A DNA stretch of 64,000 nucleotides from an uncultured Gammaproteobacteria bacterium (GTDB lineage Bacteria > Patescibacteriota > Patescibacteriia > Magasanikbacterales > GWA2-37-8), in NCBI GenBank assembly GCA_964641245.1, contig CAZXML010000001.1, positions 45,065 to 109,064 of the forward strand, written 5' to 3'. Shown here one piece after another: positions 1 through 55,352 of this stretch. The notes under the pieces were generated by a model. That model was not told the origin of the DNA and did no database searches. It saw nothing but the letters and a program-made list of their open reading frames with translations. Positions within the stretch are counted from its first letter, which is position 1, and each line of letters starts with the position of its first letter. Position numbers and translations under genes: made by a program.

Positions 1-80
1 TTTTATCAAGGCCAATATTTCCATGGAAAAACTGATGCAAAATGTCAGAAAAATAGCTAAGTGATAAGTATAGACTTGTT

Positions 81-467
81 ATGTCTGAAGAACCAAAAAA
101 ATCCGCTAAGACCATACTGATAGTTGAAGATGACGATGTGTTGTTGCGTACTCTGTACCTGGTTTTTCACAAAACCGGTTTTACGATTGCCACGGCCACC
201 GATGGCGACACCGCGTTAAAAATGGTTTTGCGCCTTAAACCGTCTTTGGTGCTGTTGGATTTACTTTTACCAAAAATGAACGGGTTTGATTTTTTAAAAA
301 ATATTAAGGCAGACCCGGCCTTAAAAACTATCCCCATAATTGTATTGTCCAATTTAGGCGAGGAAAATATCCAAAAAGCAAAAGATTTGGGAGCCGCGGA
401 TTATTTTATAAAATCCGACACCAGTTTGGAAAATTTAAAAGAAAAAGTTTTAAAAATTCTAGCATAA
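81..467 (+). CDS. Stand-alone response-regulator receiver (CheY-like) protein
   Basis: ILIVEDDDVLL...LLDLLLPKMNGFDFL...IIVLSN shows the receiver-domain phospho-acceptor Asp and the loop motifs. 128 aa with no output domain. Confidence 0.8.
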   Translation: MSEEPKKSAKTILIVEDDDVLLRTLYLVFHKTGFTIATATDGDTALKMVLRLKPSLVLLDLLLPKMNGFDFLKNIKADPALKTIPIIVLSNLGEENIQKAKDLGAADYFIKSDTSLENLKEKVLKILA

Positions 468-497
468 ATTTTTATGTTAAAGGGGAGGTGGCTTAAC

Positions 498-1298
498 ATG
501 ATTCTGGTTTTAACTAACAGAATCTATGTAAAAAAACAGTTAGTTTTGGGTGGGGAGGGTCTAAAGGTAGGAAAAGATGTATTATTACTGGTTTTGTACC
601 AGATCTTTTTGGCCCTGGTCTCATTACCGTTATATCTTAGCGTAAAACCGGCGGGGTTGGCTGTTTATGTTAAAGATACGGCCACCTATACCAAAATTTC
701 CGCGGATTACAGTCTGCGCCGTATTTTAACCCTCACCGGTGTCGGCGTTTTTTTAATTATCTGGGTGGTAAAACTAATATTAATAATATCTCTGCCTAGT
801 TTTTACGGACCATTGCGTCTTTATGAAGTGGTAAATTTTCGTCCGGCCGATATTTTAAACAGCGATTTAGTGGCCACGGAAACAGGTATGCAAACTGCGC
901 GTGTTCTGTCTACAATTCCAATTCCAACCTTAAAAACTGCCACCAAAGTAAGCGGCGGAGATTATATTTTTTCCGGTTCAGCCACTCCGTTATCTACGGT
1001 CGCCTTGCTTTTATCCGGCAATCAAACCGCGGTTTATTCGGCAGTGGCAGATAAAAGCGGTAAATGGGAAATCAGCCACGCGCAAAGCGGGTTCCGGCTG
1101 GCCGAGGGCAATCATTCCATAATAATTTTTGAATACGATCAAAAAAACAGCGCCCGAGGGCAAGCCGCGCCGGAACAATATTTTAAAGTTACCACCAACA
1201 TCTGGGATAAAATTACCGGCAGTGTAGATACCATCGCCAATTGGTCGGTGGTCATTATTTTAATATTAGGGGTATTCCTAACTCTTCTCACTCTTTAA
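498..1298 (+). CDS. Membrane-anchored Ig-like domain protein, a short paralog of the giant gene's termini
   Basis: SD-like AAGGGGAGGTGG lies 8 nt before the second ATG (498). The N-terminal TM region SLPLYLSVKP...RRILTLTGVGVF matches the giant protein N-terminus. The C-terminus SG.A.P...D.SG.W.ISHAQSG...G.HSI plus a final TM helix matches the giant protein C-terminus. Confidence 0.6.
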   Translation: MILVLTNRIYVKKQLVLGGEGLKVGKDVLLLVLYQIFLALVSLPLYLSVKPAGLAVYVKDTATYTKISADYSLRRILTLTGVGVFLIIWVVKLILIISLPSFYGPLRLYEVVNFRPADILNSDLVATETGMQTARVLSTIPIPTLKTATKVSGGDYIFSGSATPLSTVALLLSGNQTAVYSAVADKSGKWEISHAQSGFRLAEGNHSIIIFEYDQKNSARGQAAPEQYFKVTTNIWDKITGSVDTIANWSVVIILILGVFLTLLTL

Positions 1299-1320
1299 AC
1301 GTATAGGAGTTTTTTTTAAT

Positions 1321-1404
1321 TGTCATTCTGAGCAAAGCGAAGAATCTCTGTCCGGCTGGTCAAAACGGTACTGACAGAGATCCTTCACTGCGTTCAGGAT
1401 GACA
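1321..1404. repeat. Family-A miniature palindromic element (TGTCATTCTGAGCAAAGCGAAGAATCTCTGTC...GACAGAGATCCTTCACTGCGTTCAGGATGACA)
   Basis: Imperfect palindrome with near-identical copies at 19004, 20417, 21290, 41493 and 50664. Confidence 0.85.
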
Positions 1405-1433
1405 AATAATATAAATAATTAGCTACCATTTGT

Positions 1434-4400
1434 ATGAAAGCAAGCTGGCTAAATATATTTTTCCATTTTTCCGGAAAAATATTCAAATTAAAACAAGGCT
1501 TAATTGCTTCCACCCGCTGGTATGTGGCGGTGTATTATGCTTTATTGTTGTTTTTTGTGGAGTTGGCTTTGGCTATTATTTCTTTTCCGCTGTATTTTTT
1601 GGTTTCTCCAAAAGATATTCAAAAAGGGGGATTATATTCGTTGCCCGGTCCGCAAGCGTCTATAAACGAATATCTTTGGCGCAGAAGAATCGGCCTTACC
1701 ACCGGTGTTGGCGCCACATCCGTATTTTTGCTTAAAGTTGTTTTAGTCGGCGTGGTCTCTTTTTATTTTTTGGGAGCGCAAAAATTGCTGGCCGATTCGC
1801 AAGATTGGACTTTTGGGACGCCATCGGATTATACATATAATTCTTCCATCGTTGAAATTACCGGCGGGGTTGCGCGGTTAAAAGATCTTGGAAGTTTGGT
1901 TGCCAGTAGCACAATTAATTCCGGTTTTACCACTAATTCGGTTGGTTGGACAAACGCAGATTGGACCGATCCAGGCAATGTAACTGTGGGCCAAACTCGG
2001 CAGACATCTGGTGGAAACACCGGCGCTTATGTAGATGTTGATATCGCGATAACCGGTTCGGCTACCGCAAATAGATCCGGCGCCGGTTATTGGCAACAAA
2101 CATTTATTACCAATGTTGCTACTCCGGATACCGCCACGTTAAATTTAGATTGGAAATCAATTACTTACACTTCGCCAACTCCGCCCGCTACATATCGGCT
2201 GTATGCTTTTATTGAAACTACCAGCGGCGCCCCCACCGCAACCAATACCGCTATTTGGAATAGCGGAGAAATTACCGCCGCCACCAGCTGGGCAAGTATT
2301 TCGGCCGTGGATATTGTTAGTAAAATTCCTACGGCCGGCACTTATTATTTAAAAATTGCCGCTTATGCTACCAGCCCATTGGCAACCGGAGCGTATTCTT
2401 TTATTTCCGGCTTTGACAATGTAATTGTAAATTGGTCCAAAACAACTCACTCGTATTCCACCGCCAACCCCACCACCACGCCGGTCGCTTCGCTGTCCGC
2501 GCCAAAAATTATGAGCTGGAACGGATTCACCGAAAACGCTACACTCAACGGCGGTTCAATCAGCTACCAACTCACCGCAGACAATGGAACAAATTGGAAA
2601 TACTGGAACGGCTCTGCTTGGGCAACGTCCAGCGTCAGTAATTTCAACATTGCCAGCGTTATTAATTCCAACATCGCTACTTTCCCCACATCATCCAATC
2701 AAATTAAATGGAGGGCGTACATGACCAGTGACGGAACACAACAAGTATCGCTAAGCGGAGTTTCTATTACATACACCCAAAACGATCCGCCGCACATCAT
2801 AAGTCTGTCGCCGGCGCAAAATACCGGCAATGGCACTGTATATGTTGCTTATAGTTTACAAGACGCCAACAGCGACCCGGAATCATTGGTTGATTATGAG
2901 TATTCATTAACCGGCGCGTTTGCCGGCGAGCAAACCACCATGACCGCTTCTACTTCTGATGCGGCGCATAATGGAATCACAGGATTAAGTTCCTCGCCAA
3001 TCGGCACCGCGCATACATTTGTTTGGGATGCCCGCGCCCAGCTTGGAAACATCGTCACCACCACTGTTTATGTACGCTTACGCGCCAACGACGGTATTGC
3101 TAACGGCGCCTATACCACCAGTTCCGTATTCACAGTAGATTATGTTGCGCCAATCGTTTCCAATGTTTCCGCCGTACAAACACCGGGCACAACCACTGTC
3201 AGTATTTCCTACGATTTAACCGATTTCACAGCGTCCGGTTTAAATGTTGAATTGGGAATCTCCAACGACAGCGGCAGTACCTGGACAATCGCCACTACCT
3301 CTGCCACAGGCAATGTGGGGAGTGGTCAAACCACCGGAACAGGCAAAACCATTACCTGGAACGCGGGCGCGGATTATTCCGGACAAAGCCTTTCTACAAT
3401 GCGGGCGCGGGTAAAAGCGCGTGATAACTGGCAAAACCAGGGAACATTCACCAGTTCTTCAAATTTTTCTTTAGACACTTTGGCCCCGGCCACTCTTGCC
3501 ACCGCCAATTTGCAAGCCCAGCCAAATGCCGGAGACACCACCGTGCTTATCGGCGGAACATTCACCGAAGCCAACCCCAATACCAATGATTTTTACGTTG
3601 CCATTAACAACGGTGTATATAGTAGCGCTACGGCCGGCACAGGTAATACCGCCTCGCCGTCAAACCAAGCCACCGATGTCGGCGCCACTTTAGACGGCAA
3701 TGATTTTATTTCCAAAGTTAAAATTACTCATACCGATGATTTTGGCAACTCCGGAAATAATGAAAATACATCGCCTACCACTACCTATATATATGTAAAG
3801 CCGTACACACCGTCCGCGCCGACATTAAATAATCCGGTAACTACTCGTTTGGATTTAACGATTAACCCGCATGCAAGTGAAACCAGTGGTTTGGAATACG
3901 CCATCCAGGAAACAACCAGCGGTTTTTTTGTCCAGACCGACGGAACTTTGGCCGCCAGCGTTGTCTGGCAAATTTTAGGAACAAGCGCCGGACAGTGGGG
4001 GAATATCACCGCAGTTTCCGGCAAGGCCCGCGTTACCGGTTTATCATCTCCGGTGGCCAATTATGTTTTTAAAGTAAAATCACGCAACACCGGCGATACG
4101 GCGCACGCCACCTCATCCGAATCCGCTTACTCCGCCACCGCGCAAATTACCAACACCGCGCCTTCGGTTTCATTATCAAGTTATTCTCAAACCACAGACG
4201 GAACCCGTTATGTGCCGATAAATTATACCGGCACAGACGCGCAGGGCGATATCAACAGTTTAAATCAACGCCAATATTCCACCGATAACAGCGCCTGGAA
4301 CACCATGACCGAAAAATCCGGCGTGGGTAGTAGCGGCATAACCAACCTCACATTCCTATCTGGTGGCAGTAGTTACAATTTTGCCTGGGATTCAAATACA

Positions 4401-7400
4401 GATTTGCCGAGCGTAGAGGACACCACTGTTTATGTCCGTTTGCGGTCTACCGACACTTTGGCCAGCAGTTCTTTGGCCACCTCCAACGCTTTCGAAATAG
4501 ACAATGTCAATCCGGTTATTTCTACCACCACAGCCAGCCAAGACAGCGGAGCCAGAACCGTAACCATCACCTATAATTTAACCGACGCTAATGCCAGCAA
4601 TGTGCTTTTGGAAATTTCATCCAATAGCGGTTCTACCTGGGTTGTGGCCACATCTTCCGCTACCGGCGCAGTTGGTTCCGGAGTAACAGCCGGTGCCGGT
4701 AAAACTATTACCTGGAACGCGGGTACGGATTTCAATAGTCAATACAACACAACTATGATGGTCCGCGTTACACCGCGGGATACTTTTGGTAATCTTGGTT
4801 CCAGCGCGTCATCGGCCAATTTTACAGTAGACACAAAATCTCCAACCGTTACCAATGTTACCGCCGTTCAAGATTCCGGCGCCTCAACATTTGTTTTCCA
4901 CTACGACATTGTCGAAGACTCCGGAAATTCTCGGGTTGTGCTGGCAATTTCATCCAACAGCGGTAGTACTTGGGTTGTGCCAACGTCTTCGGTTAGCGGA
5001 GATTACGGCGCCAGCGTCACTCCCGGCACCGGCAAAACAATTACTTGGGATGGGGGAGCGGATTATAGTAGTCAGGAAAAATCTACCATGCAAATCCGTC
5101 TTACAGCCACAGATAGTTTCTCAAATAACAGCGTAAACACATCGGCGGATTTTAATTTGGATACATATGCTCCGCGTATTACCAATGTCAGCGCTTCACA
5201 AAATGCCGGCAATACCACCGTGGCTATTTCTTACGATTTAGCGGATGCAAATACCTCCACAATTTTATTGCAAATTTCTTCGGACAATGGTTCCAGCTGG
5301 ACAGTGCCAACCACCACCGCCACCGGAAATCTGGGCAGTAATATTTCCGCCGGCACCGGTAAATCAATTTCCTGGAACGCCGGAACAGATTTCTCCGCCC
5401 AGGATATTTCCAACATGAAAATACGTTTGCGCGGTACCGATACATTTAGCAATCAATCCGGCTACGTAACATCTTCCGCGTTTGCCTTAGACACAAAATC
5501 TCCGGTTGTGGCCACCACCGCCAATTTGCAAGCCCAGCCCAACGCCGGCGACACCACCGCTTTAATCGGCGGATCATTTACCGAAACCAATCCAAACACC
5601 AATAATTTTTATGTCGCGCTTGATGGCGGTTCGTATGGTTCGGCTACCGCCGGCACGGGCAACACCGCTTCTCCTTCAGACCAAAGCACAGCCACCGGCG
5701 TCACCTTAAAAGGCAATAATTATATTTCCAAAGTTAAAATTGTTCACACCGATGATTTTGGATTGGCAACTACAAACGAAAACACATCGCCAGCTACCAG
5801 TTTAAAATATGTTAAACCTTATACACCGTCGGCGCCTACCGCGGATAATCCGGCAGTTGGTGAAGTGGATGTTTTGGTAAATGCTAATCCTTCGGAAGTT
5901 ACCGGTTTGCAATACGCAATTTACGAAACTACGCAAAGTAAGTATGTTCAGGCCAACGGCACACTTGGGGTTACACCAATTTGGCAGACCATCGGCACAT
6001 CATTTGGCCAGTGGGGGAACACCACCGCGATATCCGGTAAAATCCGCGTAAACGGATTGGCGAACGCTTCTTATACATATCAATTCAAAACCAAATCACG
6101 CAACAGCTCAGACTTTTTCAACACGGCCAGCAGTGAAAGCGCATTGTCCGCCGGCGCCTCTTCCGCCAATCAAGCGCCGTCAATTTCTATCAATTCGGCT
6201 GCTCAAACCACCAACGGCACTCAATATATTACAGTAAATTATACAGGTACGGATTTGGAAAGCGAAACTGTTTCGCTGGTCAGATACCAATATTCTACAG
6301 ACAACAGCATTTGGAACACAATGACGGAAAAATCAGGTGTTGGTTCGCAGGGAACAAGCGGTTTGGCATTTAGCGCCGCCGGAGCCAGTCATAATTTTGC
6401 CTGGGATGTTGGCGCGGATTTAGCAAACACCGAAGACACAACCGTTTACGTTAGACTCCAAGCCAACGACGGCACCAGCAGTGGAAACACCGCCGTATCC
6501 AGCGCGTTTGTGGTAGACACCAAAAATCCGGCCATTAGCAGTGTCACCGCCAGCCAAAATTCCGGCGCCGGCACCGTGGCTATTTCATATACTTTAACAG
6601 ACGACAGCACCAGCACGATAGTTATGGAAATGTCGTCCAGCAGTGGTTCTACCTATAATGTTTCCGTCAGTTCTGCAACCGGCAATGTAGGCGCAGGAAT
6701 TTCATCCGGCTCCGGTAAATCTATTTCCTGGAATGCCGGCACAGACTTTTCCGGTCAGGAATTATCTACCATGAAAACACGTTTACGCGCCACGGATGCA
6801 TTTGGCAACGTGGGTTCGTTATCCGCGTCCGGTTTGTTTGACTTAGACACCAAAGTTCCGGCTGTTTCCAACGTTTCGGCTATTCAAAGCGCCGGTGGCG
6901 GGTCCGTATCAATTACCTATGATTTAAGCGACACAAATCAAAGCACTGTTGTCTTGGAAGTTTCTTCAAGCAGTGGTTCTACCTGGCTAGTGCCGGTTAG
7001 TTCGGTTACCGGAGCGGTTGGTTCCGGAGTTTCGGGCGGTACCGGAAAGACAATTACGTGGAATGCTAATGCGGATTTCTCGGGCCAAGAATTTGCCGGC
7101 ATGATTGCGCGGGTTAGGGCCACCGATATTTATAGCAATGCCGGAAGCAATGTTCAGTCCGGAGCATTTTCCTTAGACACGAAAGCCCCGGTTGTATTAA
7201 ATGTTGGCGCTTCACAAACAGCCGGCACTACTACTGTGGTAATTTCTTACGATTTATCAGATTTGGGAACAAGCACGGTAGATGTTGAAATATCTTCCAA
7301 TAACGGTTTGGGTTGGACAGTGGCCACGAGCACACTTACGGGTTCGGTTGGCTCAAATATTACGGCTGGATTCGGCAAAACAGTAGTTTGGAATGCTAAA

Positions 7401-10400
7401 GTGGATTATTCCGGCCAAGACAGCAATTCAATGCGCGTCCGCGTGCGGGGCAGAGACCGATTTAATAACATCGGCGACTTTACTCAATCCACAGATTTTA
7501 ATTTAGACACATTATCTCCGGCAACACTCACCACCGCCGATTTAATTTCCCAGCCTAATGCCGGCGATACCACGGCTTCAATCGGAGGGTCATTTACGGA
7601 AACTCACCCCAACACCAATGATTTCTATATTGCTATTAATGGCGGGGCTTATGGTTCGGCCACTGCCGGTACAGCCAACACTGCCGCTCCATCCAATCAG
7701 GCCACTGGCGTTGGTGCTACTTTAACCGGTAATGATTATATTTCCAAAGTAAAAATTGCCCACGCCGATGATTTTGGCCAGGCAACCACCAACGAAAATA
7801 CTTCTCCGGCCACCAGCCTAAAATATGTTAAGCCGTACACACCGTCCGCTCCCACAGTAAATAATCCGCAAAATACTTCCGTAACCGTTGCCGTTAACTC
7901 GCATGCCAGCGAAAGCGCTTCTGTGGAGTACGCTATTGCCGAAGTTTCCACCGGTAATTATATACAAACCAATGGCACACTCGGCGCCAGCGCGGTTTGG
8001 AAAACGCTTGGCACCGGCGCCGGGAAGTGGGGGAATGTATCCGGCGTAACCGGCACAATTAGTGTCAGCGGTCTTACTTCACCGGTAGCAAATTACAGTT
8101 TTAAAGTTAAATCGCGCAATCCTTCGGACTCTCTGCACGCCTCCGCCAGCGAAAGTAATTTTTCCACTATCGTAGGAATCAGCAACACCGCGCCCGGTAT
8201 TTCCGTTTCCAGCGTTAGTCAGCAAACCGGCAATTCTTACGCTTTAATTAATTACGTCGGCACCGATACTCAAAATGACACAAACAATCTAAACGCGTTT
8301 GAATTTTCTACGAACACCGTAAATTGGTTTACTATGACTCAAAAATCCGGCGTGGGTAGTAGTGGAGTCAGCTCATTAATATTCTCATCAACCGGCACGA
8401 ACTTTATTTTTGCTTGGGATATTGCCACAGATTTGCCCGGATATGAATCCAGCGCCGTACGCATCCGCTTAAAATCCAATGACGGTCTTACAGACAGTAA
8501 TTTAGCGCAATCTTCCGCCTTCGCCGTAGATGCCAAAGCGCCGGTAGTTTCCGGTATCAGCGCCAGTCAAGCGCCAAGCACCGGTATATTTACTTTTGAA
8601 TATACTCTGGCCGATAATTCCGCCGCCAGCAATACAATCTCACTACAAATTTCCGATGATAGCGGTTCTACCTGGACCGTGCCCACCACTTCAGCATCCG
8701 GCGATGTTGGTAGCGGTGTATCCGCCGGTTCAGCCCGTTCTATAACATGGAATCCGGCCACCAATTATCCAAACGCCGAAAGTAGTAATTTCAGAATCCG
8801 AATTCGCGGTACCGATATATATAGTAATGTCGGATCCTATGCAACGTCCTCATTATTCGCCGTAGACACCAAAGGCCCCGTAGTCAGTTCGGTTTCAGCG
8901 GTACAAAGCACCAGCACGGGTAAAGTAACTGTTTCATATTCATTCTCCGACATCACTTCCGCCGGTAACTCAACCGAATTCCAGGTTTCTTCCAACAACG
9001 GCTCAACCTGGGTTGTTGCCACCACCACCCGTAGCGGAGAAATCGGTTCCGGTCAAAGCACCGGTTCAAAAACATTTATCTGGGACGCGCCCACGGATTT
9101 TAACGGCCAGTCCAATTCGCAAATGATGGTTCGCGTCCGCGCCACTGATTATTTTGGCAACCTTGGTAGTTTTACCAATTCTTCCGCTTTCTCGCTTGAT
9201 ACCGCCGCTCCGGTTGTTTCCAGTTTAACCGGCGTGCAAATAACCAATTCCACCACCGTTCAATTTACTTATAATTTAGCAGACACCCAATCCAGCGCAT
9301 CCGTCATCGCTCAAGTTTCCTCCGACGGCGGCAGTACCTGGACTGTTCCGGTCACAACACTTGCCGGAAATATCGGTTCTGCGGTTAACACTGGCAGTGG
9401 GCTCTCTATTACTTGGCTAGTCGGTACGGATTATGGCGGACAGGAATCAAATACAATGCGGGTGAGATTGCGGGCCACGGATAGTTATGGAAACGTTAGC
9501 GCATTTTTTACATCAGCAGATTTTTCTATAAATACGCTAGCGCCGGAGTCTGTCGTTTCTGCGCCGACTGTGTCAGGTGGAGTTGCAATGCCAGTATCCG
9601 TAGTAGCGGCAGTTATTGACCTTATCCCGCCTGCCGCGCCACTTGTGTTTAGCCCAACTGCCGGTAGTGTAATCGGTGAGGCTGAGCCGACTATAATTGG
9701 CGGCTCTGAACCTGGAGCAGTTATCAACATTGTTTTGGAAGGAGAAAATAAGTTTATTGCCGAAGCGGACGCTAATGGCGCTTGGCGATTCATCTTGCCG
9801 TCGCAATTTGCTCTTCAAAACGGACAACATATCTTTACTTTAACGGCCGTTGATCAGGCCGGCAATGTTAGCGCCCCAACACAATTCACTCTTACAAAAT
9901 CTTCTTCAGCGCCGGTTAGCGCCGTTTCACCAGCTGGTGGTACTGCCGGCCTCCCCGGGCTTCTTTCAGGTGTTTTACCACCCACCCCATCCGTCGCATT
10001 AGTCCGCCAAAATATAGAAGCCACCGAAGTAGCATCCTTGCAGGTACCAAAAATTAGTACCACCACGCCCGGCGTAGTGGGCAGTGATTTTGTGTTCTCC
10101 GGCACGGCTCTGCCAAATCAGGAAGTACTGGTATATTTCCACAGTAGTCAGGCTCTTATCTACCGCACCCGTTCCGACAGCAACGGTTTCTGGCAGGTAG
10201 CCCACGCGCAAAGCACCGCCGAATTAACACCCGGTGATCATACAATCTTTGCCGTCTCCGTAGATCCGGTGAACAAAGTAAAAAGCCGGCCCAGCGCGGT
10301 TTCCAGTTTCACCATAAGAAAAAATTTCTGGGTAAGCGTATTCAACGTGTTAAATCTCCAGACCACATTAGTTACTTTAATGGTTCTTGGGTTCACCATG

Positions 10401-10445
10401 CTTTGGCTTTACCGTCTGCGAGTTAGGCAGGGTGTTGAGGTTTAG
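1434..10445 (+). CDS. Giant (3003 aa) repetitive cell-surface protein with N- and C-terminal TM anchors and Ig/FN3-like tandem domains
   Basis: 9-kb uninterrupted ORF. At least 10 copies of a ~100-aa domain (ISYDLTD...SGSTWT...TGNVGSG...GKTITWNAG.DYSGQ...RVRA.D). Three ~680-aa super-repeats start at about 3480, 5510 and 7500, each beginning LQAQPNAGDTT. C-terminal Ig-like domains are followed by a hydrophobic helix and the tail RLRVRQGVEV. Confidence 0.85.
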   Translation: MKASWLNIFFHFSGKIFKLKQGLIASTRWYVAVYYALLLFFVELALAIISFPLYFLVSPKDIQKGGLYSLPGPQASINEYLWRRRIGLTTGVGATSVFLLKVVLVGVVSFYFLGAQKLLADSQDWTFGTPSDYTYNSSIVEITGGVARLKDLGSLVASSTINSGFTTNSVGWTNADWTDPGNVTVGQTRQTSGGNTGAYVDVDIAITGSATANRSGAGYWQQTFITNVATPDTATLNLDWKSITYTSPTPPATYRLYAFIETTSGAPTATNTAIWNSGEITAATSWASISAVDIVSKIPTAGTYYLKIAAYATSPLATGAYSFISGFDNVIVNWSKTTHSYSTANPTTTPVASLSAPKIMSWNGFTENATLNGGSISYQLTADNGTNWKYWNGSAWATSSVSNFNIASVINSNIATFPTSSNQIKWRAYMTSDGTQQVSLSGVSITYTQNDPPHIISLSPAQNTGNGTVYVAYSLQDANSDPESLVDYEYSLTGAFAGEQTTMTASTSDAAHNGITGLSSSPIGTAHTFVWDARAQLGNIVTTTVYVRLRANDGIANGAYTTSSVFTVDYVAPIVSNVSAVQTPGTTTVSISYDLTDFTASGLNVELGISNDSGSTWTIATTSATGNVGSGQTTGTGKTITWNAGADYSGQSLSTMRARVKARDNWQNQGTFTSSSNFSLDTLAPATLATANLQAQPNAGDTTVLIGGTFTEANPNTNDFYVAINNGVYSSATAGTGNTASPSNQATDVGATLDGNDFISKVKITHTDDFGNSGNNENTSPTTTYIYVKPYTPSAPTLNNPVTTRLDLTINPHASETSGLEYAIQETTSGFFVQTDGTLAASVVWQILGTSAGQWGNITAVSGKARVTGLSSPVANYVFKVKSRNTGDTAHATSSESAYSATAQITNTAPSVSLSSYSQTTDGTRYVPINYTGTDAQGDINSLNQRQYSTDNSAWNTMTEKSGVGSSGITNLTFLSGGSSYNFAWDSNTDLPSVEDTTVYVRLRSTDTLASSSLATSNAFEIDNVNPVISTTTASQDSGARTVTITYNLTDANASNVLLEISSNSGSTWVVATSSATGAVGSGVTAGAGKTITWNAGTDFNSQYNTTMMVRVTPRDTFGNLGSSASSANFTVDTKSPTVTNVTAVQDSGASTFVFHYDIVEDSGNSRVVLAISSNSGSTWVVPTSSVSGDYGASVTPGTGKTITWDGGADYSSQEKSTMQIRLTATDSFSNNSVNTSADFNLDTYAPRITNVSASQNAGNTTVAISYDLADANTSTILLQISSDNGSSWTVPTTTATGNLGSNISAGTGKSISWNAGTDFSAQDISNMKIRLRGTDTFSNQSGYVTSSAFALDTKSPVVATTANLQAQPNAGDTTALIGGSFTETNPNTNNFYVALDGGSYGSATAGTGNTASPSDQSTATGVTLKGNNYISKVKIVHTDDFGLATTNENTSPATSLKYVKPYTPSAPTADNPAVGEVDVLVNANPSEVTGLQYAIYETTQSKYVQANGTLGVTPIWQTIGTSFGQWGNTTAISGKIRVNGLANASYTYQFKTKSRNSSDFFNTASSESALSAGASSANQAPSISINSAAQTTNGTQYITVNYTGTDLESETVSLVRYQYSTDNSIWNTMTEKSGVGSQGTSGLAFSAAGASHNFAWDVGADLANTEDTTVYVRLQANDGTSSGNTAVSSAFVVDTKNPAISSVTASQNSGAGTVAISYTLTDDSTSTIVMEMSSSSGSTYNVSVSSATGNVGAGISSGSGKSISWNAGTDFSGQELSTMKTRLRATDAFGNVGSLSASGLFDLDTKVPAVSNVSAIQSAGGGSVSITYDLSDTNQSTVVLEVSSSSGSTWLVPVSSVTGAVGSGVSGGTGKTITWNANADFSGQEFAGMIARVRATDIYSNAGSNVQSGAFSLDTKAPVVLNVGASQTAGTTTVVISYDLSDLGTSTVDVEISSNNGLGWTVATSTLTGSVGSNITAGFGKTVVWNAKVDYSGQDSNSMRVRVRGRDRFNNIGDFTQSTDFNLDTLSPATLTTADLISQPNAGDTTASIGGSFTETHPNTNDFYIAINGGAYGSATAGTANTAAPSNQATGVGATLTGNDYISKVKIAHADDFGQATTNENTSPATSLKYVKPYTPSAPTVNNPQNTSVTVAVNSHASESASVEYAIAEVSTGNYIQTNGTLGASAVWKTLGTGAGKWGNVSGVTGTISVSGLTSPVANYSFKVKSRNPSDSLHASASESNFSTIVGISNTAPGISVSSVSQQTGNSYALINYVGTDTQNDTNNLNAFEFSTNTVNWFTMTQKSGVGSSGVSSLIFSSTGTNFIFAWDIATDLPGYESSAVRIRLKSNDGLTDSNLAQSSAFAVDAKAPVVSGISASQAPSTGIFTFEYTLADNSAASNTISLQISDDSGSTWTVPTTSASGDVGSGVSAGSARSITWNPATNYPNAESSNFRIRIRGTDIYSNVGSYATSSLFAVDTKGPVVSSVSAVQSTSTGKVTVSYSFSDITSAGNSTEFQVSSNNGSTWVVATTTRSGEIGSGQSTGSKTFIWDAPTDFNGQSNSQMMVRVRATDYFGNLGSFTNSSAFSLDTAAPVVSSLTGVQITNSTTVQFTYNLADTQSSASVIAQVSSDGGSTWTVPVTTLAGNIGSAVNTGSGLSITWLVGTDYGGQESNTMRVRLRATDSYGNVSAFFTSADFSINTLAPESVVSAPTVSGGVAMPVSVVAAVIDLIPPAAPLVFSPTAGSVIGEAEPTIIGGSEPGAVINIVLEGENKFIAEADANGAWRFILPSQFALQNGQHIFTLTAVDQAGNVSAPTQFTLTKSSSAPVSAVSPAGGTAGLPGLLSGVLPPTPSVALVRQNIEATEVASLQVPKISTTTPGVVGSDFVFSGTALPNQEVLVYFHSSQALIYRTRSDSNGFWQVAHAQSTAELTPGDHTIFAVSVDPVNKVKSRPSAVSSFTIRKNFWVSVFNVLNLQTTLVTLMVLGFTMLWLYRLRVRQGVEV

Positions 10446-10465
10446 ATTGTGGTATAATAAAATCA

Positions 10466-13342
10466 TTGTTACTCCAACAACATGCTATGGAAGAAGCCAA
10501 AAAACTTTCATCAGACACGCTTATTGACCCAAAGCTGGTTTCATTAACGAAGTTTTTTTCGGAAGCAATAAGCATTCTAGTTGTTTTGGTTGGAGCCCTG
10601 AATTTGATTGGTTGGAAATTTAATCTGGCGGTTTTAAAGAGTGTTTCCGCCGGCTTTGTTACCATGAAACCAAATACGGCTATTGGCCTGATTTTTTTGG
10701 GCGCTTCCTTGTGGTTTTTGCAGGAAAAACGATTAAAACATTGGGCGCGATATTTTGGTTATGGAAGCGCGATCGTGGCTATACTCATTGGCGCGATGGT
10801 AATTTTCCAATATTTTTTGGGTTTTAATTTGGGTATTGACAATTTATTTTTCACAGAAACCGCGCCAGCCTTGTTTACCACTTTTCCCGGCCGCATGGCT
10901 TTAAACACCGCTTTTATTCTTGTTTTTCTCGGCGTTTCTTTGTTGTCTTTTAATATAAAAACCAAGCGCGATTTGTGTTTATGTTCGCTTACGGCCATAT
11001 TGAGCGGAGCGGCGGCCTTGTTTGTTATTCTCGGTTATTTGCATGATCTCTCGGATTTTTATTTTGCCGGGGTGTTTTATACACTCATGGCTTTGCATAC
11101 AGCTATCAGTTTTTTCCTCATTAGCTTGGGGATTTTACTTGCGCGTCCGGAAAGCAGATTAATCAAAATTTTTACGCGCAATGATTCAATTGGTATCACC
11201 GTCCGCCGCATACTGCCACTGGTTTTTATTGTATCTTTGGTCGTAGGGAAGCTGGAATGGTTTGGTCTTTATTTTAATTTATATAACAGAGATTTTGGAC
11301 ATGCGCTGGTTAGCATCGTTTCAATCACGATTTTAGTGTCGTTGGTGTGGTGGAACGCAGTCAAAATGACGCAGAAAGAAGAACAGCGCGCGCAAACCCA
11401 AGAATTGTTGATAAAGTCAACAGAAGAAGTAAGAAGGCTGGGTTTCTTGATAGAACACACAGCGGAAGCGGTCGCGTTAGTTGATTTTGAGGGGGGTAAT
11501 GTCTTGCGTTATGTTAATCATGCCTGGGAGAAATTATTTGGCTTTAGCAAGCAGGAGGCGGTGAATAAAAAAGAACCTCTGATTATTGAGGCGGCCAAAC
11601 GTGATCCGACTTTAAATAAAAAACTCAAAGACTGCATTGCTTCGCATACGCCGTTTCAGGCGGAGATGGAATGGAGAAGAAAAGACGGCGCTTTAATTCC
11701 GGTAGAAGTGTTTTCTTCGTCCAGCCGAGATGTTCTTACTGGCAAATATATTTGGCTTAACACTATTCATGATATCTCCGCGCGCAAAAAAGCCGAGAAA
11801 GAAAAAATAATTATAGATCAATCGTTGCGCCGGAGCGAGGAAAGTTTGAAAAATGCTCAGCGCATATCCCATCTTGGTAATTGGGAGTGGGATATTTCAA
11901 CTAATGACGTTTTTTGGTCTGATGAAGTATATCGTATTTATGGGTATAAACCGGGCGAGATTCAACCGAATTTTGATGTTGTTTTGCGCGCCATGTCTCC
12001 CGAAAGCATTGAGGCGTTTAAACAAGGCTTGGATGATGCTATTAAAGGAAAAAAACCGTTTGAAATGGATTATGAATTATTTCGGAAAGATGGGTCAAAG
12101 GCGGTACTGCATACTATTGGCGCGGTGATTTATGACCAAAATAAAGCGCCGTTGCATATGACAGGCACTGTTCTCGATATTACCGCGCATAAAAAAGCCG
12201 AGGAAGAAATTAAAAAAGAGCAATTAAAATCAGCGGCTTTAGCCGGTGAGCTGGAAAAGTTTAAGCTGGCCGTAGACGGCGCGAACGAGCATATTATAAT
12301 TACCGATGCGGAGGGTGGTGTTATTTACGCCAATAAAGCGGTAGAAACCATTACCGGTTTTTCGCCGGCCGAAGTATTGGGGAAAAAACCCGGAAAAATC
12401 TGGGGCGGGCACATGTCGATAGAGTTTTATAAAAAAATGTGGCATAGGATTAAAATCGAAAAGAAAGGCTTTATCGGCGAGGTAAACAATTATAAGAAAA
12501 ACAGCACTCCTTATGTCGCGTCATTAAATATAACGCCGATACTGGATAAAAATGGCGCGGTAGAATTTTTTGTCGGCATAGAACGGGATATTACTAAAGA
12601 AAAAAAGGTGGAAGAAATGAAGAATGATTTTATTTCTTTTGTTTCGCACCAATTGCGTACCCCGCTTACGGTTATGCGCTGGAACGCAGAAATGTTGCTG
12701 AGCGCGGATGCCGGGAAATTAAATCGCGAACAGAAACGATATATTGCGGAAATAGACCGTGGCGAACAAAGAATGGCTCTTTTAATAAACTCTCTGCTCA
12801 ATATTTCTCGTCTGGAATCTGGGCGATTAAAAATAAATCCCAAGCCGGTTGATTTGGAGGAATTTATCGGCAATATAGTAGCGGAAGATACTCCTTATGC
12901 CACCGCTAAAAATTGTACCATCATATTTACCAAGCCTAAAAAGAAATTGCCGCCGGTAAAGATAGACGAAATGCTAACCAAGGAGGTAATTTCCAACCTG
13001 CTAAATAACGCGATCCGGTATTCACAAACCAAAAAATGTGATATAAATGTATCGTTGGAGATAAGCGGGGAATTTTATCAGATAAATATAGTCGACCATG
13101 GTATTGGCATCCCCATAGACGTGCAGAATAAGATTTTTACTAAATTTTACCGCGCCGATAACGCCGTTAAGGTGGAAACCGAGGGAACCGGTCTGGGGCT
13201 TTACATGACAAAATTAATCGTAGAAACAGGCGGTGGAAAAATATGGTTCGAATCCACCGAAGGCAAAGGCAGCGCGTTTCATTTTACCATTTCTAAGGCC
13301 GGAATGCGGGAGGTGAAAGGAGAAAAAGAACTTTCTATTTAA
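10466..13342 (+). CDS. Sensor histidine kinase with a multi-TM N-terminus, three PAS domains, HisKA and HATPase_c
   Basis: H-box FISFVSHQLRTPLTVM, N-box NLLNNAIRYS, G-boxes DHGIGIP and GTGLGLYMTK. PAS-like segments are at about aa 330-700. Confidence 0.85.
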   Translation: MLLQQHAMEEAKKLSSDTLIDPKLVSLTKFFSEAISILVVLVGALNLIGWKFNLAVLKSVSAGFVTMKPNTAIGLIFLGASLWFLQEKRLKHWARYFGYGSAIVAILIGAMVIFQYFLGFNLGIDNLFFTETAPALFTTFPGRMALNTAFILVFLGVSLLSFNIKTKRDLCLCSLTAILSGAAALFVILGYLHDLSDFYFAGVFYTLMALHTAISFFLISLGILLARPESRLIKIFTRNDSIGITVRRILPLVFIVSLVVGKLEWFGLYFNLYNRDFGHALVSIVSITILVSLVWWNAVKMTQKEEQRAQTQELLIKSTEEVRRLGFLIEHTAEAVALVDFEGGNVLRYVNHAWEKLFGFSKQEAVNKKEPLIIEAAKRDPTLNKKLKDCIASHTPFQAEMEWRRKDGALIPVEVFSSSSRDVLTGKYIWLNTIHDISARKKAEKEKIIIDQSLRRSEESLKNAQRISHLGNWEWDISTNDVFWSDEVYRIYGYKPGEIQPNFDVVLRAMSPESIEAFKQGLDDAIKGKKPFEMDYELFRKDGSKAVLHTIGAVIYDQNKAPLHMTGTVLDITAHKKAEEEIKKEQLKSAALAGELEKFKLAVDGANEHIIITDAEGGVIYANKAVETITGFSPAEVLGKKPGKIWGGHMSIEFYKKMWHRIKIEKKGFIGEVNNYKKNSTPYVASLNITPILDKNGAVEFFVGIERDITKEKKVEEMKNDFISFVSHQLRTPLTVMRWNAEMLLSADAGKLNREQKRYIAEIDRGEQRMALLINSLLNISRLESGRLKINPKPVDLEEFIGNIVAEDTPYATAKNCTIIFTKPKKKLPPVKIDEMLTKEVISNLLNNAIRYSQTKKCDINVSLEISGEFYQINIVDHGIGIPIDVQNKIFTKFYRADNAVKVETEGTGLGLYMTKLIVETGGGKIWFESTEGKGSAFHFTISKAGMREVKGEKELSI

Positions 13343-13357
13343 TTTAATTCATTCATT

Positions 13358-13741
13358 TTGAATATGCCGAGCGCCAGAAACACAATTCTTATCGTGGAGG
13401 ACGATTTGGACCTGCTGGAGGTTTTAAGAAAAAAATTTATCATGGAGAAATTTGAGGTATTACAAGCCCCGGACGGAAAAATTGGTTTGGAGGAAGCGTT
13501 GCGCAGTCATCCGGATTTAATTTTGTTGGATATTATAATGCCGATTATGGATGGGATGACTATGTTGGCCAAATTGCGCCAGGATTCCTGGGGGAAAAAT
13601 GTATCGGTAATATTGCTGACAAACCTAAGTGATGAAAGCAAAGTGGCCGAGGGGCTGAAACACGGAGTATACGACTATCTGGTTAAGGCCGATTGGAATA
13701 TTGGTGATGTGGTAAAAAAAGTTAAAGCCAGACTTAAATAA
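13358..13741 (+). CDS. Stand-alone response-regulator receiver protein
   Basis: ILIVEDDLDLLEVL...ILLDIIMPIMDGM...ILLTNL. 127 aa, receiver only. Confidence 0.8.
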   Translation: MNMPSARNTILIVEDDLDLLEVLRKKFIMEKFEVLQAPDGKIGLEEALRSHPDLILLDIIMPIMDGMTMLAKLRQDSWGKNVSVILLTNLSDESKVAEGLKHGVYDYLVKADWNIGDVVKKVKARLK

Positions 13742-14660: not shown

Positions 14661-14663
14661 TAG

Positions 14664-14745
14664 GTATTAAGTATTATGTATCAAGTATTATGCGGTTGTT
14701 TGTCCGTACGATACTTAATACCTAATACTTAATACGTAATACTTA
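14664..14745. repeat. Family-F AT-rich palindrome (GTATTAAGTATTATG...TACTTAATAC)
   Basis: Long imperfect inverted repeat. A related copy lies at 32037-32123. Confidence 0.6.
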
Positions 14746-14749
14746 TTCT

Positions 14750-15829
14750 ATGTCCAAAAAAATCCATCTCCTGCTCGGCCTATTGTCCGCGCTGGTCCTC
14801 ACCGGCGCCGGCTGTATTCAGTTTACAAATTCCGCGCAGGGGCCAATGGGGGTTTTCCGGTCAGCTGATGCCGGTGAAACCTGGGCGTCAAAATCTGTTT
14901 TGCTTAGCGCGCAGGGAGTAAAAAGCCTGGCCGGAGCCAAAGTTTACAAAATTTTTACCGACCCCGGCGACCCCAAAGCCTTGTATATGGGCACACGCGG
15001 CCAAGGTTTGTATTATAGCTACGATAACGGCGATACCTGGCAGGGCACAGCGGTAATGGCCGGCAAGTACATTTACGCTTTAGCCGTAGACCCGCGCGAT
15101 AAGTGCGTTATTTATGTCAGCGATGGCCAGCATATTTATAAAACATCGGATTGCCAAAGAACTTGGGATTTATTATTCAGCGAAGAGCGAACCACGCAAA
15201 GATTTGTGGCTTTGGCCGTAGATAACAGCGATTCAAAAATAATTTATGGCGCGGAATTGGGCGGAGATATTTTCCGCAGTAAAGACGGCGGGCAAAGCTG
15301 GCGTATTATTAAACGCTTTGGTTTTGAAATGCGCCATTTAGCTGTAGATCCGTTAAGCGCGCACCGTTTGTTTGCCGCCGCGTACAACCAAGGTCTATTC
15401 CGTTCCGATGACGGCGGAGAAACCTGGGTTAGTGCCACCGACGGCTTTCAAAATTTCAACGACAGCTTTACTTTTAACCGTTTTGTCTTAAACCCATCTC
15501 AAAAAGACAGTATATTCTGGATTTCCAAATATGGCATCCTGCGTTCCGACAACGCCGGCGCTTCCTGGACAGATATCAAACTACTCACTCCGCCCGGCAG
15601 TGTAAATATTTATGGCTTTGCCATCAACCCAAAAAATCCGCTTGAAATGTATTACACCGGCACAATCCTAGGAGATAAAAATGAAAACGTCCGCAGTACT
15701 CTGTACAAATCCGTAGACGGCGGAGTAAACTGGGTCACAAGAAAACTCCCGTCTAACACCATACCGGTAGATATGCTTACCAGCCGAGAAAACGGCAAGA
15801 TGTTGTTTTTAGGATTCACGACGTTGTAA
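14750..15829 (+). CDS. BNR/Asp-box repeat beta-propeller lipoprotein
   Basis: Lipobox LTGAGC after a signal peptide. Seven S-x-D-x-G-x-T/S-W repeats (SADAGETW, YDNGDTW, SKDGGQSW, SDDGGETW, SDNAGASW, SVDGGVNW). Confidence 0.7.
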   Translation: MSKKIHLLLGLLSALVLTGAGCIQFTNSAQGPMGVFRSADAGETWASKSVLLSAQGVKSLAGAKVYKIFTDPGDPKALYMGTRGQGLYYSYDNGDTWQGTAVMAGKYIYALAVDPRDKCVIYVSDGQHIYKTSDCQRTWDLLFSEERTTQRFVALAVDNSDSKIIYGAELGGDIFRSKDGGQSWRIIKRFGFEMRHLAVDPLSAHRLFAAAYNQGLFRSDDGGETWVSATDGFQNFNDSFTFNRFVLNPSQKDSIFWISKYGILRSDNAGASWTDIKLLTPPGSVNIYGFAINPKNPLEMYYTGTILGDKNENVRSTLYKSVDGGVNWVTRKLPSNTIPVDMLTSRENGKMLFLGFTTL

Positions 15830-15856: not shown

Positions 15857-15928
15857 TGTCATTCTGAGCATAGCGAAGAATCCCTCTCGTTTATGTGTAA
15901 GGGATCCTTCACTTCGTTCAGGATGACA
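15857..15928. repeat. Family-A miniature palindromic element (variant)
   Basis: TGTCATTCTGAGCATAGCGAAGAATCCCTC...GGGATCCTTCACTTCGTTCAGGATGACA. Confidence 0.8.
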
Positions 15929-16491: not shown

Positions 16492-17352
16492 ATGCAGCAA
16501 GAACATTTGAAGCGTTTAGCTAAAACTTTAGATGATATCCGGCATCAAAATGGTGTTGAGTCTTGGTATGCGCGAGAGCTGTACCCGCTATTGGGCTATG
16601 TCCGTTGGGAGAACTTTGAAACCGCTATAAACAGAGCAAAAGACTCGTGTCTGAAGACCGGCGCAAATGTTGAAGATCATTTTCGTGAGGTCACGAAAAC
16701 GATAGAAATGCCTAAGGGGGCAAGCAAAGAAGTGGTAGATATCAAACTTACCCGATACGCCTGCTATTTGGTTACACTCAACGGAGATCCCAAAAAAGAA
16801 GCCATTGCGTTTGCCCAGGCGTATTTTGTCACCCAGACCAGAACTGTTGAATTATTACAACAACGAATGGCCGAGCTGGAAAGAATTGACGCCAGAGAAA
16901 AATTAAAAATTACTGAAAAGGAGTTTAGCGATATGGCGTTTAGCAGAGGTGTTGATAGTAAGGGTATTGGAGAAATACGCTCTAAGGGCGATAAAGCTCT
17001 TTTTGGCGGAAGAACAACCGACGAAATGAAGCAAAAATTAGGGGTTCAACTCAAGAAGCCTCTGGCGGATTATTTGCCGAATGTAACACTGAAAGCAAAA
17101 GATTTAGCCACCGCGATGACTATAGAAAAAACGAGGCAGAATAATCTTTCGGGAAAAAATCAGATACGGGATGAGCACGTTAATAATAATAGAAATGTCC
17201 GCGGCGCCTTAACAAAAACCGGTATTTTCCCGGAGAGTTTGCCGGTCGCGGAAGACATAAAGAAAATTGAAGCCAGACATCGGAAAGAAACAAAAGCCTT
17301 GCAAAAAAAACAGCGCGATGAGTTAGGCAGGGCAGCGAAAAAGTTGGCTTAA
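16492..17352 (+). CDS. DinD / Bro-N-like DNA-damage-inducible protein D family protein
   Basis: The N-terminal ~120 aa carry WYARELYPLLGY..WENF and LTRYACYLV.LNGDP motifs, recalled from DinD-type proteins. The C-terminus is charged and coiled. Confidence 0.45.
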   Translation: MQQEHLKRLAKTLDDIRHQNGVESWYARELYPLLGYVRWENFETAINRAKDSCLKTGANVEDHFREVTKTIEMPKGASKEVVDIKLTRYACYLVTLNGDPKKEAIAFAQAYFVTQTRTVELLQQRMAELERIDAREKLKITEKEFSDMAFSRGVDSKGIGEIRSKGDKALFGGRTTDEMKQKLGVQLKKPLADYLPNVTLKAKDLATAMTIEKTRQNNLSGKNQIRDEHVNNNRNVRGALTKTGIFPESLPVAEDIKKIEARHRKETKALQKKQRDELGRAAKKLA

Positions 17353-19003: not shown

Positions 19004-19087
19004 TGTCATTCTGAGCAAAGCGAAGAATCTCTGTCTGGTTGGTAAAAACAATACTGACAGAGATCCTTCACTGCGTTCAGGATGACA
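19004..19087. repeat. Family-A miniature palindromic element
   Basis: Canonical copy. It overlaps the annotated ORF start, so the real peptidase start is downstream. Confidence 0.85.
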
Positions 19088-20393: not shown

Positions 20394-20524
20394 TGTCATC
20401 CCCCCGACCCATTAATTGTCATTCTGAGCAAAGCGAAGAATCTCTGTCCGTTCGGCGATTGAGACAGAGATCCTTCACTGCGTTCAGGATGACAGTTGGC
20501 GCAAGACTCGCTCGGAATGACAAA
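20394..20524. repeat. Cluster of a TGTCATCC fragment, a family-A element and a partial GAATGACA terminus
   Basis: CTGTCATCCCCCCGACC, then the full A element 20417-20494, then CTCGGAATGACA. Confidence 0.75.
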
Positions 20525-21289: not shown

Positions 21290-21435
21290 TGTCATTCTGA
21301 GCAAAGCGAAGAATCTCTGTCCGCATATTGTCATTCCCGCCCGAGAGCGGGAATCCAGACAATTCAACCGGACACTGGATTCCCAATCAAGTTGGGAATG
21401 ACAGACAGAGATCCTTCACTGCGTTCAGGATGACA
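21290..21435. repeat. Nested elements: a family-D palindrome (TGTCATTCCCGC...GGGAATGACA, 21339-21404) inserted inside a family-A element
   Basis: The A left half is at 21290-21328 and the A right half at 21405-21435. They are interrupted by a complete D-type element. Confidence 0.8.
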
Positions 21436-22492: not shown

Positions 22493-22568
22493 GCCGCCTT
22501 AGCTCAGCTGGTAGAGCAACACTTTTGTAAAGTGAAGGTCCTGGGTTCGAATCCCTGAGGCGGCTCCA
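22493..22568 (+). tRNA. tRNA-Thr (anticodon UGU), with CCA encoded
   Basis: Hand-folded cloverleaf. Acceptor GCCGCCT/AGGCGGC, D-arm GCTC-AGCTGGTA-GAGC, anticodon loop TTTGTAA, T-loop TTCGAAT. There is one U-U mismatch in the T-stem. Confidence 0.7.
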
Positions 22569-23244: not shown

Positions 23245-23527
23245 GGGTGGATTCCTGAGCGGTCAAAAGGGGCAGACTGTAGTAAAATGCAGCTCTTGAG
23301 GGAAACTTCAGGATGAACTTTCTGGGATAACGGTGAAAGCTAAGGCAGGTGCTATGCCAATACCGTGGGAACCCCGATATTTGGTCGGGGGCGCCGTAGA
23401 GACTAGATACCAGAGTGCCTAAAGTCAATGTGACTAAGGCAAAGATATAGTCCACGCCAGAAGGAAACTTTTGGATTAGTGAAATCTGCTGGCTCCGCCT
23501 TCGTAGGTTCGAATCCTACTCCACCCA
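23245..23527 (+). ncRNA. ssrA: Probable tmRNA (ssrA); the tRNA-like domain is clear but the tag ORF is not resolved
   Basis: The 5' GGGTGGA pairs with the 3' TCCACCC. A perfect T-arm GTAGG-TTCGAAT-CCTAC and a discriminator A follow. About 283 nt, with no ORF. Confidence 0.5.
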
Positions 23528-55340: not shown

Positions 55341-55352
55341 AATACAACCAAT

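Follow-up and report, generated by a model that had tools for sequence, protein, structure and literature searches.

The first 14 kb of a 64,000-nucleotide stretch of DNA (contig CAZXML010000001.1; referred to below as the window) carry a gene cassette in which response regulators made of a receiver domain alone are combined with two putative surface proteins and a sensor histidine kinase (HK). The host is an ultrasmall, groundwater-type bacterium of the Candidate Phyla Radiation (CPR)/Patescibacteria, with a genome of the Candidatus Magasanikbacteria type. The core of the cassette consists of two receivers (RR0 and RR1) followed by a small and a giant protein, and it is kept in this order across related lineages; the kinase and a further receiver (RR2) form a pair of their own beside it. 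We consider it highly probable that these genes constitute a functionally linked, conserved signalling-adhesin cassette. The balance tips slightly towards a system in which the adjacent PAS kinase phosphorylates the receivers and these act by protein-protein contact, without a DNA-binding output.

The original prediction had described a giant surface-protein locus bracketed by orphan receivers and a multi-PAS kinase, with five tightly spaced genes on one strand. These five open reading frames (ORFs) lie where it placed them, all on the + strand, and have the domain content it described when searched with Pfam. RR1 (81-467) encodes 128 aa with a Response_reg match of 78.7 bits and no further domain. 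It is followed by the gene of a small membrane protein (474-1298, 274 aa), an intergenic palindromic repeat (1321-1404, no strand assigned) recognised by its fold and copy count, the giant gene (1434-10445, 3003 aa according to the ORF list), the kinase gene (10487-13342, identified by Pfam and its transmembrane (TM) segments) and RR2 (13364-13741, Response_reg 80.3 bits). The spacing is tight for the gaps of 6-41 bp, but not for the 135 bp between the small and the giant gene. A third receiver-only gene, RR0, is sliced by the left edge of the window, where bases 2-64 (+) represent its 3′ end. The translation of this tail, ...FIKANISMEKLMQNVRKIAK*, is identical to the end of a 142-aa Response_reg gene (2243-2671) on the overlapping contig L003, on which the whole RR0 gene is visible with RhuM and MreB genes ahead of it. 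RR0 opens the conserved cassette.

Some gene starts were reconsidered. The kinase was correctly described as a membrane protein with three PAS domains. Its length of 958 aa was amended to 951 aa, as the start is probably the ATG at 10487, like in the identical kinase P0001. The alternative TTG at 10466 is disfavoured because it lies only 8 nt past a candidate extended -10 element (10450-10458). RR2 probably starts at the ATG at 13364 (125 aa), matching the gene call in L001, and would comprise 127 aa from the TTG at 13358. The start of the small protein at 474 is backed by the family-conserved N-terminus MKxxWLN, while the 266-aa start proposed by the gene caller is not.

Gene order in relatives had been chosen beforehand as the point on which the original prediction could fail, and it proved to be strongly conserved. 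Alignment of homologs of the small protein yielded 31 loci from species-representative genomes (40-62% identity to the protein in the window), which were annotated locally against the cassette components. The metagenome-assembled genomes are labelled as Magasanik-, Uhr-, Buchanan- and Falkowbacteria, "Paceibacteria" and others. RR1-like and RR0-like receivers stand directly 5′ of the small gene in all of the 28 loci whose visible upstream sequence is 900 bp or longer, and the RR0 ortholog group was found in 28/28. A giant homolog (~1100-3450 aa) starts no more than 400 bp 3′ of the small gene in 25 of the 28 loci in which 1.2 kb or more can be seen downstream. RR0, RR1, small, giant and RR2 each form their own ortholog group. 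Identities are 61-74% for RR0 among the loci, 60% for RR1 and its L005 ortholog, 59-87% for RR2, and 48% and 47% for the small and giant proteins in the ortholog comparison. Most gaps inside RR0-RR1-small-giant measure 1-20 bp, the small and the giant gene touch or overlap in most relatives, and the 28 cassettes share no additional conserved gene. The tight spacing on the + strand is by itself uninformative because nearly all genes of the window are on this strand and densely packed. It is the cross-genome synteny that places the arrangement above chance.

The conserved unit is not the bracket of five genes. It is the core RR0-RR1-small-giant, whereas the kinase is movable and HK-RR2 persists without the surface genes. 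The flanks of the cassette vary, with LeuRS and ComEC in several loci, MreB-RhuM and holB in the window and other genes elsewhere. Since the four genes stay together while their flanks differ, RR0-RR1-small-giant travels as a unit. In the distant lineage L037, the order is ComF, a single RR1-like receiver, small and a giant-like gene, and therefore RR1-small-giant represents a deeper core. Locus L004 (LeuRS, HK, RR2, ComEC) is devoid of RR0, RR1, small and giant; its close kin is L005 (HK 74% and RR2 95% identical). This joint loss ties RR0 and RR1 to the surface genes. L002 contains the closest orthologs of HK (53%) and RR2 (87%) and comprises RR0, an extra small kinase, an RR1-like receiver, HK, RR2 and holB. 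The secreted or surface proteins encoded between its regulators are different ones, namely, an Asp-box protein with a signal peptide, a dockerin-like protein, and a third protein that combines a signal peptide with Big_13 and a TM helix. The regulatory frame is retained and the surface cargo swapped. Full-text searches of the literature found no description of this cassette in CPR. Downstream of the cassette lies the gene of a Bro-N domain protein (16492-17352, +), and one of the RhuM family (L003 1071-2111) immediately precedes it. Both are typical of mobile elements and, together with the differing flanks elsewhere, hint at a location of the cassette in a variable region.

The two regulators named in the original prediction are indeed receiver-only, as is RR0; their phospho-sites are intact and an output domain is missing in all three. 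Response_reg covers essentially the whole protein in RR0 (142 aa), RR1 (128 aa) and RR2 (125-127 aa), which qualifies them as single-domain response regulators. The receiver pocket is kept in the consensus of 30 RR0, 30 RR1 and 6 RR2 orthologs, namely, EDD, LLD, SNL/TNL and Lys, the latter in the context YF.K/YFiK in RR0/RR1 and YLVK in RR2. Over the 30 RR1 orthologs, the pocket residues EDDD, LLD, SNL and K are conserved. A search of the three receivers against NCBIfam gave nothing above any curated cutoff. RR1 was the top scorer of the three against each single-domain model and remained far below the cutoffs of the CheY equivalog (NF007901, 47.2 bits vs 189), of DivK-like DVU0259_DivK (63 bits vs 160) and of EpsW (49 bits vs 200). 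The nearest receiver-domain similarities are spread evenly over PhoB, MtrA, RssB, Spo0F and CheY.

The small protein had been termed a mini-anchor. It is a small membrane protein, and this part of the description holds; it was further identified as a 274-aa protein that, by comparison with the giant one, is a miniature paralog of its two ends. BLASTP matched the small to the giant protein in the C-terminal Ig domain (E 1e-13) and in the N-terminal module (E 2e-05). No Pfam or NCBIfam model covers the family. Big_13 matches the small protein with only 18.4 bits (cutoff 27), and some orthologs carry PF19077. The family holds its length of ~273 aa and comprises at least 180 clusters at 90% identity; its profile gave 624 hits among 50% representatives, many of them full-length (255-285 aa). 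In the AlphaFold2 model (pLDDT 70), an N-terminal helix is followed by two TM helices with a beta-hairpin loop between them, and a linker then leads to an Ig-like sandwich and the C-terminal TM helix. By Foldseek, this Ig domain is similar to the Ig (extender) domains of Bap, SiiE and MpIBP (E ~1e-4).

The N-terminal membrane module is the most conserved part of the small family with 21 of its 39 invariant alignment columns. Its signature is W-L-N...K-Q, then E...S-L-P-L-Y, a basic loop with the family consensus DYNLRR, and W..K. The loop follows the pattern Y-x-(L/V/W)-R-R, with DYSLRR in the small and EYLWRRR in the giant protein of the window. In the giant protein, the module comprises an N-terminal helix, a TM segment with Glu...SxPLY, the basic loop and a TM segment with Lys. 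Parts of the signature (...SlP.Y, ...Y.vRR) are also present in the giants and in one very distant small homolog. The module is conserved beyond the needs of a passive anchor. Two families that had no annotation before are hereby defined, namely, the small family of ~273 aa and the N-terminal membrane module common to both proteins.

The giant protein begins with this module (residues 1-120; 1434-1793, +), as delimited by BLASTP and conservation. It is followed by a beta-jelly-roll head resembling a carbohydrate-binding module (CBM) or adhesin domain (residues 121-453; 1794-2792, +) and by Asp-box Ig-like/FN3-like super-repeats (residues 455-2698; 2796-9527, +), which were assigned with a phmmer domain map and the positions of the Asp-box motifs. 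The C-terminus (9666-10445, +) consists of two Big_13-like Ig domains followed by a TM helix, and it ends with the basic tail YRLRVRQGVEV. The super-repeats are arranged as D-A-B-C / D-A-A-A-B-C x2 / D-A-A-A, where unit A is a ~105-aa Ig-like unit with the Asp-box (SxDxGxTW) and unit C is FN3-like. These main repeats are outside every Pfam model apart from a faint match to Reelin_subrepeat-B. The protein has no Cys and 27% Ser+Thr. The giant orthologs likewise have basic tails behind their last TM helix, which places the repeats outside the cell. Given the CBM-like head, the Asp-box Ig/FN3 super-repeats, the absence of Cys and the basic C-terminal tail, the giant protein is predicted to be an extracellular adhesin, adhesin-like by architecture, and would be held in the membrane by the N-terminal module shared with the small protein and by its C-terminal TM helix.

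A sortase anchor was also considered; no LPXTG-like motif was found near the C-terminus of either the giant or the small protein, although the giant protein does have a hydrophobic segment and a basic tail. The head domain is also present on CPR proteins of 600-700 aa (P0401 and P0404) whose leaders are those of classic type IV prepilins, and therefore it is a display module of more than one kind of surface appendage. The giant protein itself is not a type IV pilin, as its N-terminus is the small-like membrane module and not a prepilin leader, and it has the head alone in common with P0401 and P0404. The GC content of the giant gene (0.49 vs about 0.42) was considered as a sign of horizontal transfer and rejected. 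It was attributed to the composition rich in Ser, Thr, Ala and Gly, and orthologs at the same position oppose a recent transfer. Asp-box proteins recur around the locus: a BNR/Asp-box (Sortilin-Vps10-like) beta-propeller protein is encoded just past holB (14750-15829, +), and the L002 cassette likewise includes a signal-peptide Asp-box protein.

The kinase comprises ~7 hydrophobic segments (residues 24-300), three PAS stretches, HisKA (63.1 bits) and HATPase_c (88.6 bits) according to Pfam. Its catalytic boxes are intact (H, FVSHQLRTPL; N, NLLNNAIRY; G1, DHGIGI; G2, GTGLGL), so that it has the HisKA H box and the HATPase_c N, G1 and G2 boxes of a two-component kinase. For the 7-TM sensor part, neither a Pfam model nor an NCBIfam match was found. 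Orthologs of the kinase are 53% identical in L002 and 41-46% in L004 and L005; after P0001, the nearest relatives carry a Magasanikbacteria annotation. HK-RR2 is the only kinase-receiver adjacency that is kept as a pair, namely, in L002 (RR2 with 87% identity), L004, L005 and L013. It is a separable, self-standing pair since L004 retains it without the surface genes.

A PAS kinase is usually found beside the core, but its location is flexible. A PAS-HisKA kinase follows the giant gene in the window (W) and in L005, L008, L013, L014, L015, L018, L028 and L031, and a kinase lies upstream of RR0 in L011, L025, L027, L033 and L034. L033, L034 and L025 contain 4-6 receivers and 2 kinases in a row. 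The sensors are of the 7-TM + PAS type in the window, L002 and L005, soluble with several PAS domains in L013, L031, L033 and L025, and of the 2-TM type in L008 and L034; kinase cores are 33-50% identical between loci. In L035, a 503-aa kinase directly follows a small gene that is truncated at ~residue 220 (9983-12114). In P0409, from a Logan contig, a giant protein is joined at ~residue 540 to PAS3 and the core of the kinase. It was considered as a fusion of a receiver or kinase with the membrane module and rejected, as it seems to have arisen by deletion or as an assembly chimera at a repeat, and it was counted only as evidence of adjacency. P0409 and L035 are two independent cases in which most of the giant gene is gone and a kinase abuts the remainder, which stems either from deletions that recur across the repeats or from a collapse of the assembly.

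The original prediction had called for a search for a partner regulator with an output domain, which was carried out on the 64-kb window by Pfam annotation of essentially all ORFs and did not find any. No Hpt (PF01627), no Spo0B and no DNA-binding response regulator was detected among the window ORFs, and local phmmer searches of all six-frame ORFs revealed no other receivers or kinases. CheA, CheW and MCP genes were not found by Pfam either, nor were Lap-type domains (GGDEF/EAL-HAMP receptor, calcium-dependent periplasmic protease, type I secretion system (T1SS)) in the window. The phosphorelay that had been suggested is unsupported in its His-Asp-His-Asp form, with no Hpt or Spo0B in the window and no extra conserved gene in the 28 cassettes.

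Concerning transcription, the stop codon of the giant gene (10443-10445) is directly followed by ATTGTGGTATAAT, which holds a perfect TG-extended -10 element, TGGTATAAT, at 10450-10458 (+) ahead of the kinase. The motif was first spotted by eye and then tested: matches to TGNTATAAT on the + strand are located just 5′ of gene or tRNA starts in 6 out of 6 cases in the window. The longer motif ATTGTGGTA(T/A)AAT at 10446-10458 recurs as the apparent -10 region upstream of RR0 in L005, L014 and L031 and might serve to recognise promoters in this CPR clade. The element at the giant/kinase junction is absent in 8/8 related loci. In the relatives with a kinase after the giant gene, the distance from the stop codon to the kinase ATG is 4-11 bp in five loci and 23-41 bp in another three. 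These short gaps without an extended -10 element imply co-transcription in the relatives. A TG-extended -10 element is also found 30-60 bp upstream of RR0 in most loci, e.g. TTTTGTTGTATAAT in L003, and RR0 is therefore the first gene of the unit. A search for an operator motif upstream of RR0 by crude k-mer enrichment gave only the -10 and TTTTGTT signals. A generic promoter/terminator scan was uninformative (30 sites vs 26 expected; 32 vs 23 expected).

The 135-bp gap between small and giant folds into a strong hairpin (-51 kcal/mol, z -6.8) without a T-run. The hairpin is an intergenic palindromic repeat, TGTCATTCTGAGCAAAGCGAAGAATC...GATCCTTCACTGCGTTCAGGATGACA, with at least six full copies in the window (1321-1404, 15857-15928, 19004-19087, 20417-20494, 21290-21435 and 50664-50743) against 0 expected, and with partial copies near 41493, 52388 and 55223. 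It resembles a dispersed, genome-wide element of the repetitive extragenic palindromic (REP) or miniature inverted-repeat transposable element (MITE) kind that is not specific for the cassette. An mRNA stabiliser, an attenuator and a mobile element are candidates for its role. A cassette-specific regulatory RNA or terminator at 1299-1433 was rejected, given the dispersed repeat, the missing T-run and the lack of an Rfam match. AT-rich inverted repeats of the unit AGTATTATGTATTAAGTATTA in the intergenic regions 14661-14738 (holB/BNR) and 32040-32119 (near DnaB) are a second family that is separate from the GC-rich palindrome. In silico, the most likely transcript in the window would be RR0-RR1-small-(REP hairpin)-giant with read-through of the hairpin, plus an internal promoter for HK-RR2(-holB...), and the window may thus contain two transcription units.

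A branched system of one kinase and several receivers with non-DNA outputs fits these observations best. A promoter upstream of RR0, just beyond the window, would drive the core operon RR0-RR1-small-giant, and the PAS histidine kinase beside this core is the likely phosphodonor for the receivers. The phosphorylated receivers would act through protein-protein contact, which is proposed because all three receivers lack an output domain and neither Hpt nor a DNA-binding regulator is nearby. The most parsimonious point of contact would be the conserved membrane module with its basic cytoplasmic loop, common to the small and the giant protein, and the result a post-translational, inside-out control of adhesin display or conformation. 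We infer the pairing of kinase and receivers, the target of the receivers and the physiological output. A more specific version of this proposal, in which phosphorylated RR0/RR1 dock on the cytoplasmic face of the module (including the basic Y-x-(L/V)-R-R loop) and switch the states of the giant adhesin, is unlikely as it stands. The giant glycan-binding adhesin would then be toggled between exposed and retracted or between assembled and released.

Several points weigh against contact-based control by the adjacent kinase. Phosphotransfer and binding of the receivers to the small or giant protein are deduced from gene context, and adjacency alone is weak evidence in CPR genomes, which are gene-dense and co-directional. 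The perfect extended -10 element before the kinase and the strong hairpin between small and giant indicate that the five genes may not share one transcript in the window. The position and the sensor domain of the kinase vary between loci, and L016 has no kinase within its visible flanks. The topology of the module is ambiguous, as its N-tail and its loop are both basic, and neither the charges nor the AlphaFold2 model settle it. Among the odd-length profile hits, no fusions of a receiver or kinase with the membrane module were found, these hits being multi-Ig proteins instead. Furthermore, the search for an output regulator was confined to 64 kb of the genome, and the best-studied analogue, LovK-LovR of Caulobacter crescentus, ends in transcriptional control via distal DNA-binding regulators (PMC6530869).

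The latter two points lead to a different endpoint, with the receivers as intermediates or modulators in a multi-kinase network that ends at a distal DNA-binding regulator of the small/giant operon; the window is only a part of a larger contig, of at least 304 kb, that might encode it. In Caulobacter, a PAS-type (LOV) kinase stands beside a receiver-only regulator with attachment (holdfast) as the output, and LovR cannot bind DNA, so that its control is indirect or via protein contact (PMC6530869). LovK next to LovR affects adhesion only indirectly, by way of SkaH and SpdS-SpdR on the transcription of hfiA, and the adhesin is a polysaccharide made elsewhere (PMC6530869). LovK moreover is an HWE/HisKA_2 kinase and not of the HisKA type found here, and the cassette has two or three receivers in an operon with a pair of protein adhesins and no DNA-binding regulator nearby. 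The clear promoter upstream of RR0 in most loci is a possible control point, and the rows of receivers and kinases in L033, L034 and L025 look network-like. However, no gene of a DNA-binding response regulator or transcription factor is conserved in or beside the cassette in the 28 loci, the crude k-mer test revealed no conserved operator-like motif past the -10 element upstream of RR0, and RR0/RR1 lie strictly beside small/giant and are lost together with them, which is more typical for direct partners. A transcriptional endpoint is therefore considered fairly unlikely.

It is also conceivable that HK-RR2 is the real two-component pair with a target elsewhere, that RR0 and RR1 are mainly phosphate sinks or competitors tuning its pathway and that the surface proteins are just co-transcribed cargo. 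Such a sink role is established for single-domain response regulators, e.g. CheY paralogs. HK-RR2 survives without the other four genes in L004 and has its own candidate promoter in the window, but RR0/RR1 are present in 28/28 loci, including those in which no RR2 is seen and a kinase is directly upstream of RR0 (L011, L033, L034). The distant lineage L037 retains just the RR1-like receiver with small and giant, and RR0/RR1 vanish along with small/giant and not with HK-RR2, which makes this explanation very unlikely. Finally, the genes could lack any functional link and merely represent inherited gene order in a compact, co-directional CPR genome, with the receivers serving unrelated processes. 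The packing of the window on the + strand would agree with this, and so would the housekeeping gene holB, which follows RR2 after 1 bp. Nevertheless, the flanks change between lineages with RR0-RR1-small-giant intact, the order persists at ~40% identity of the small protein and at still lower identity in L037, and all four genes are lost together in L004. A mere inheritance of gene order is disfavoured and appears most improbable.

The proposed contact of RR0/RR1 with the membrane module of small and giant is modelled on stand-alone, phosphorylatable receivers that bind a short conserved segment of a membrane-associated target, i.e. CheY-FliM and, for type IV pili, PilG/PilH and PixG/PixH. In contrast to these systems, the cassette is without CheA, MCP, motor or pilus genes, its kinase is of the ordinary HisKA class, and an adhesin anchor would be unprecedented as the target of a receiver. 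The LapA/LapD/LapG system of Pseudomonas and its Dvh counterpart in Desulfovibrio (PMC13090378) also feature a giant Ig-repeat adhesin whose display is set post-translationally by a cytoplasmic signal via a neighbouring membrane protein. They depend on cyclic di-GMP, a periplasmic protease and type I secretion in a diderm cell, and none of those domains was found here; in the cassette, the signal would be the phosphorylation of aspartate, and the CPR cell is presumably monoderm. In Staphylococcus aureus, the two-component system ArlRS governs the giant Ebh and SraP via MgrA and thus clumping and adhesion (PMC6548404, PMC4856396), but ArlR has a DNA-binding output and the genes lie outside the adhesin operons. 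The BIg/Big_13 extender domains of SiiE, Bap and MpIBP superpose with the small Ig domain and the C-terminal Ig domains of the giant protein, and the long tandem architecture is similar. Here, the main repeats are Asp-box units, and anchoring by TM helices at both ends takes the place of T1SS retention or LPXTG.

The single parts of the cassette, i.e. the HisKA kinase, the receivers, the Ig-like repeats and the CBM-like head, are ordinary. What stands out is that two receivers without an output are coupled so strictly, in one operon and throughout the lineage, to a paralogous pair of a small and a giant membrane-anchored adhesin; the shared, highly conserved N-terminal membrane module is unusual as well. 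The cassette points to a so far undescribed signalling route that controls cell sticking. Patescibacteria are thought to live on other microbes. The mechanisms by which they switch between the attached and the free state "remain completely unknown" according to a perspective (PMC11665869), and giant CPR membrane proteins have so far been noted only as probable attachment factors (PMC8080830). The cassette is a concrete candidate for a control point of attachment, conserved in dozens of species, and provides a hypothesis that is open to experiment. Should the receivers act on the adhesin anchor directly, two-component signalling would gain a new output class. If the docking is true, a PAS kinase would directly gate the attachment of an ultrasmall CPR bacterium to its host or a surface without a transcription factor.

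Beyond the cassette, the window contains housekeeping genes as well as mobile-element and defence genes. The regions 37661-39658, 55178-56739 and 58922-63183 in its right half encode a coupling ATPase resembling TraG/TrwB, RadC, a Phd/YefM antitoxin and, as a type III restriction-modification pair, an N6_N4 methylase with a ResIII helicase. A DUF3800-V RNA (55031-55128, -; Rfam, 53.6 bits) lies beside the gene of a DUF3800 protein (54363-55013, +). A match to the Group I intron of Rfam at 23270-23474 (+) is at the gathering threshold (50.5 vs 50 bits). It comes after an unannotated ORF of 202 aa (22633-23241) and between the tRNA-Thr genes at 22493-22568 and 23937-24010.

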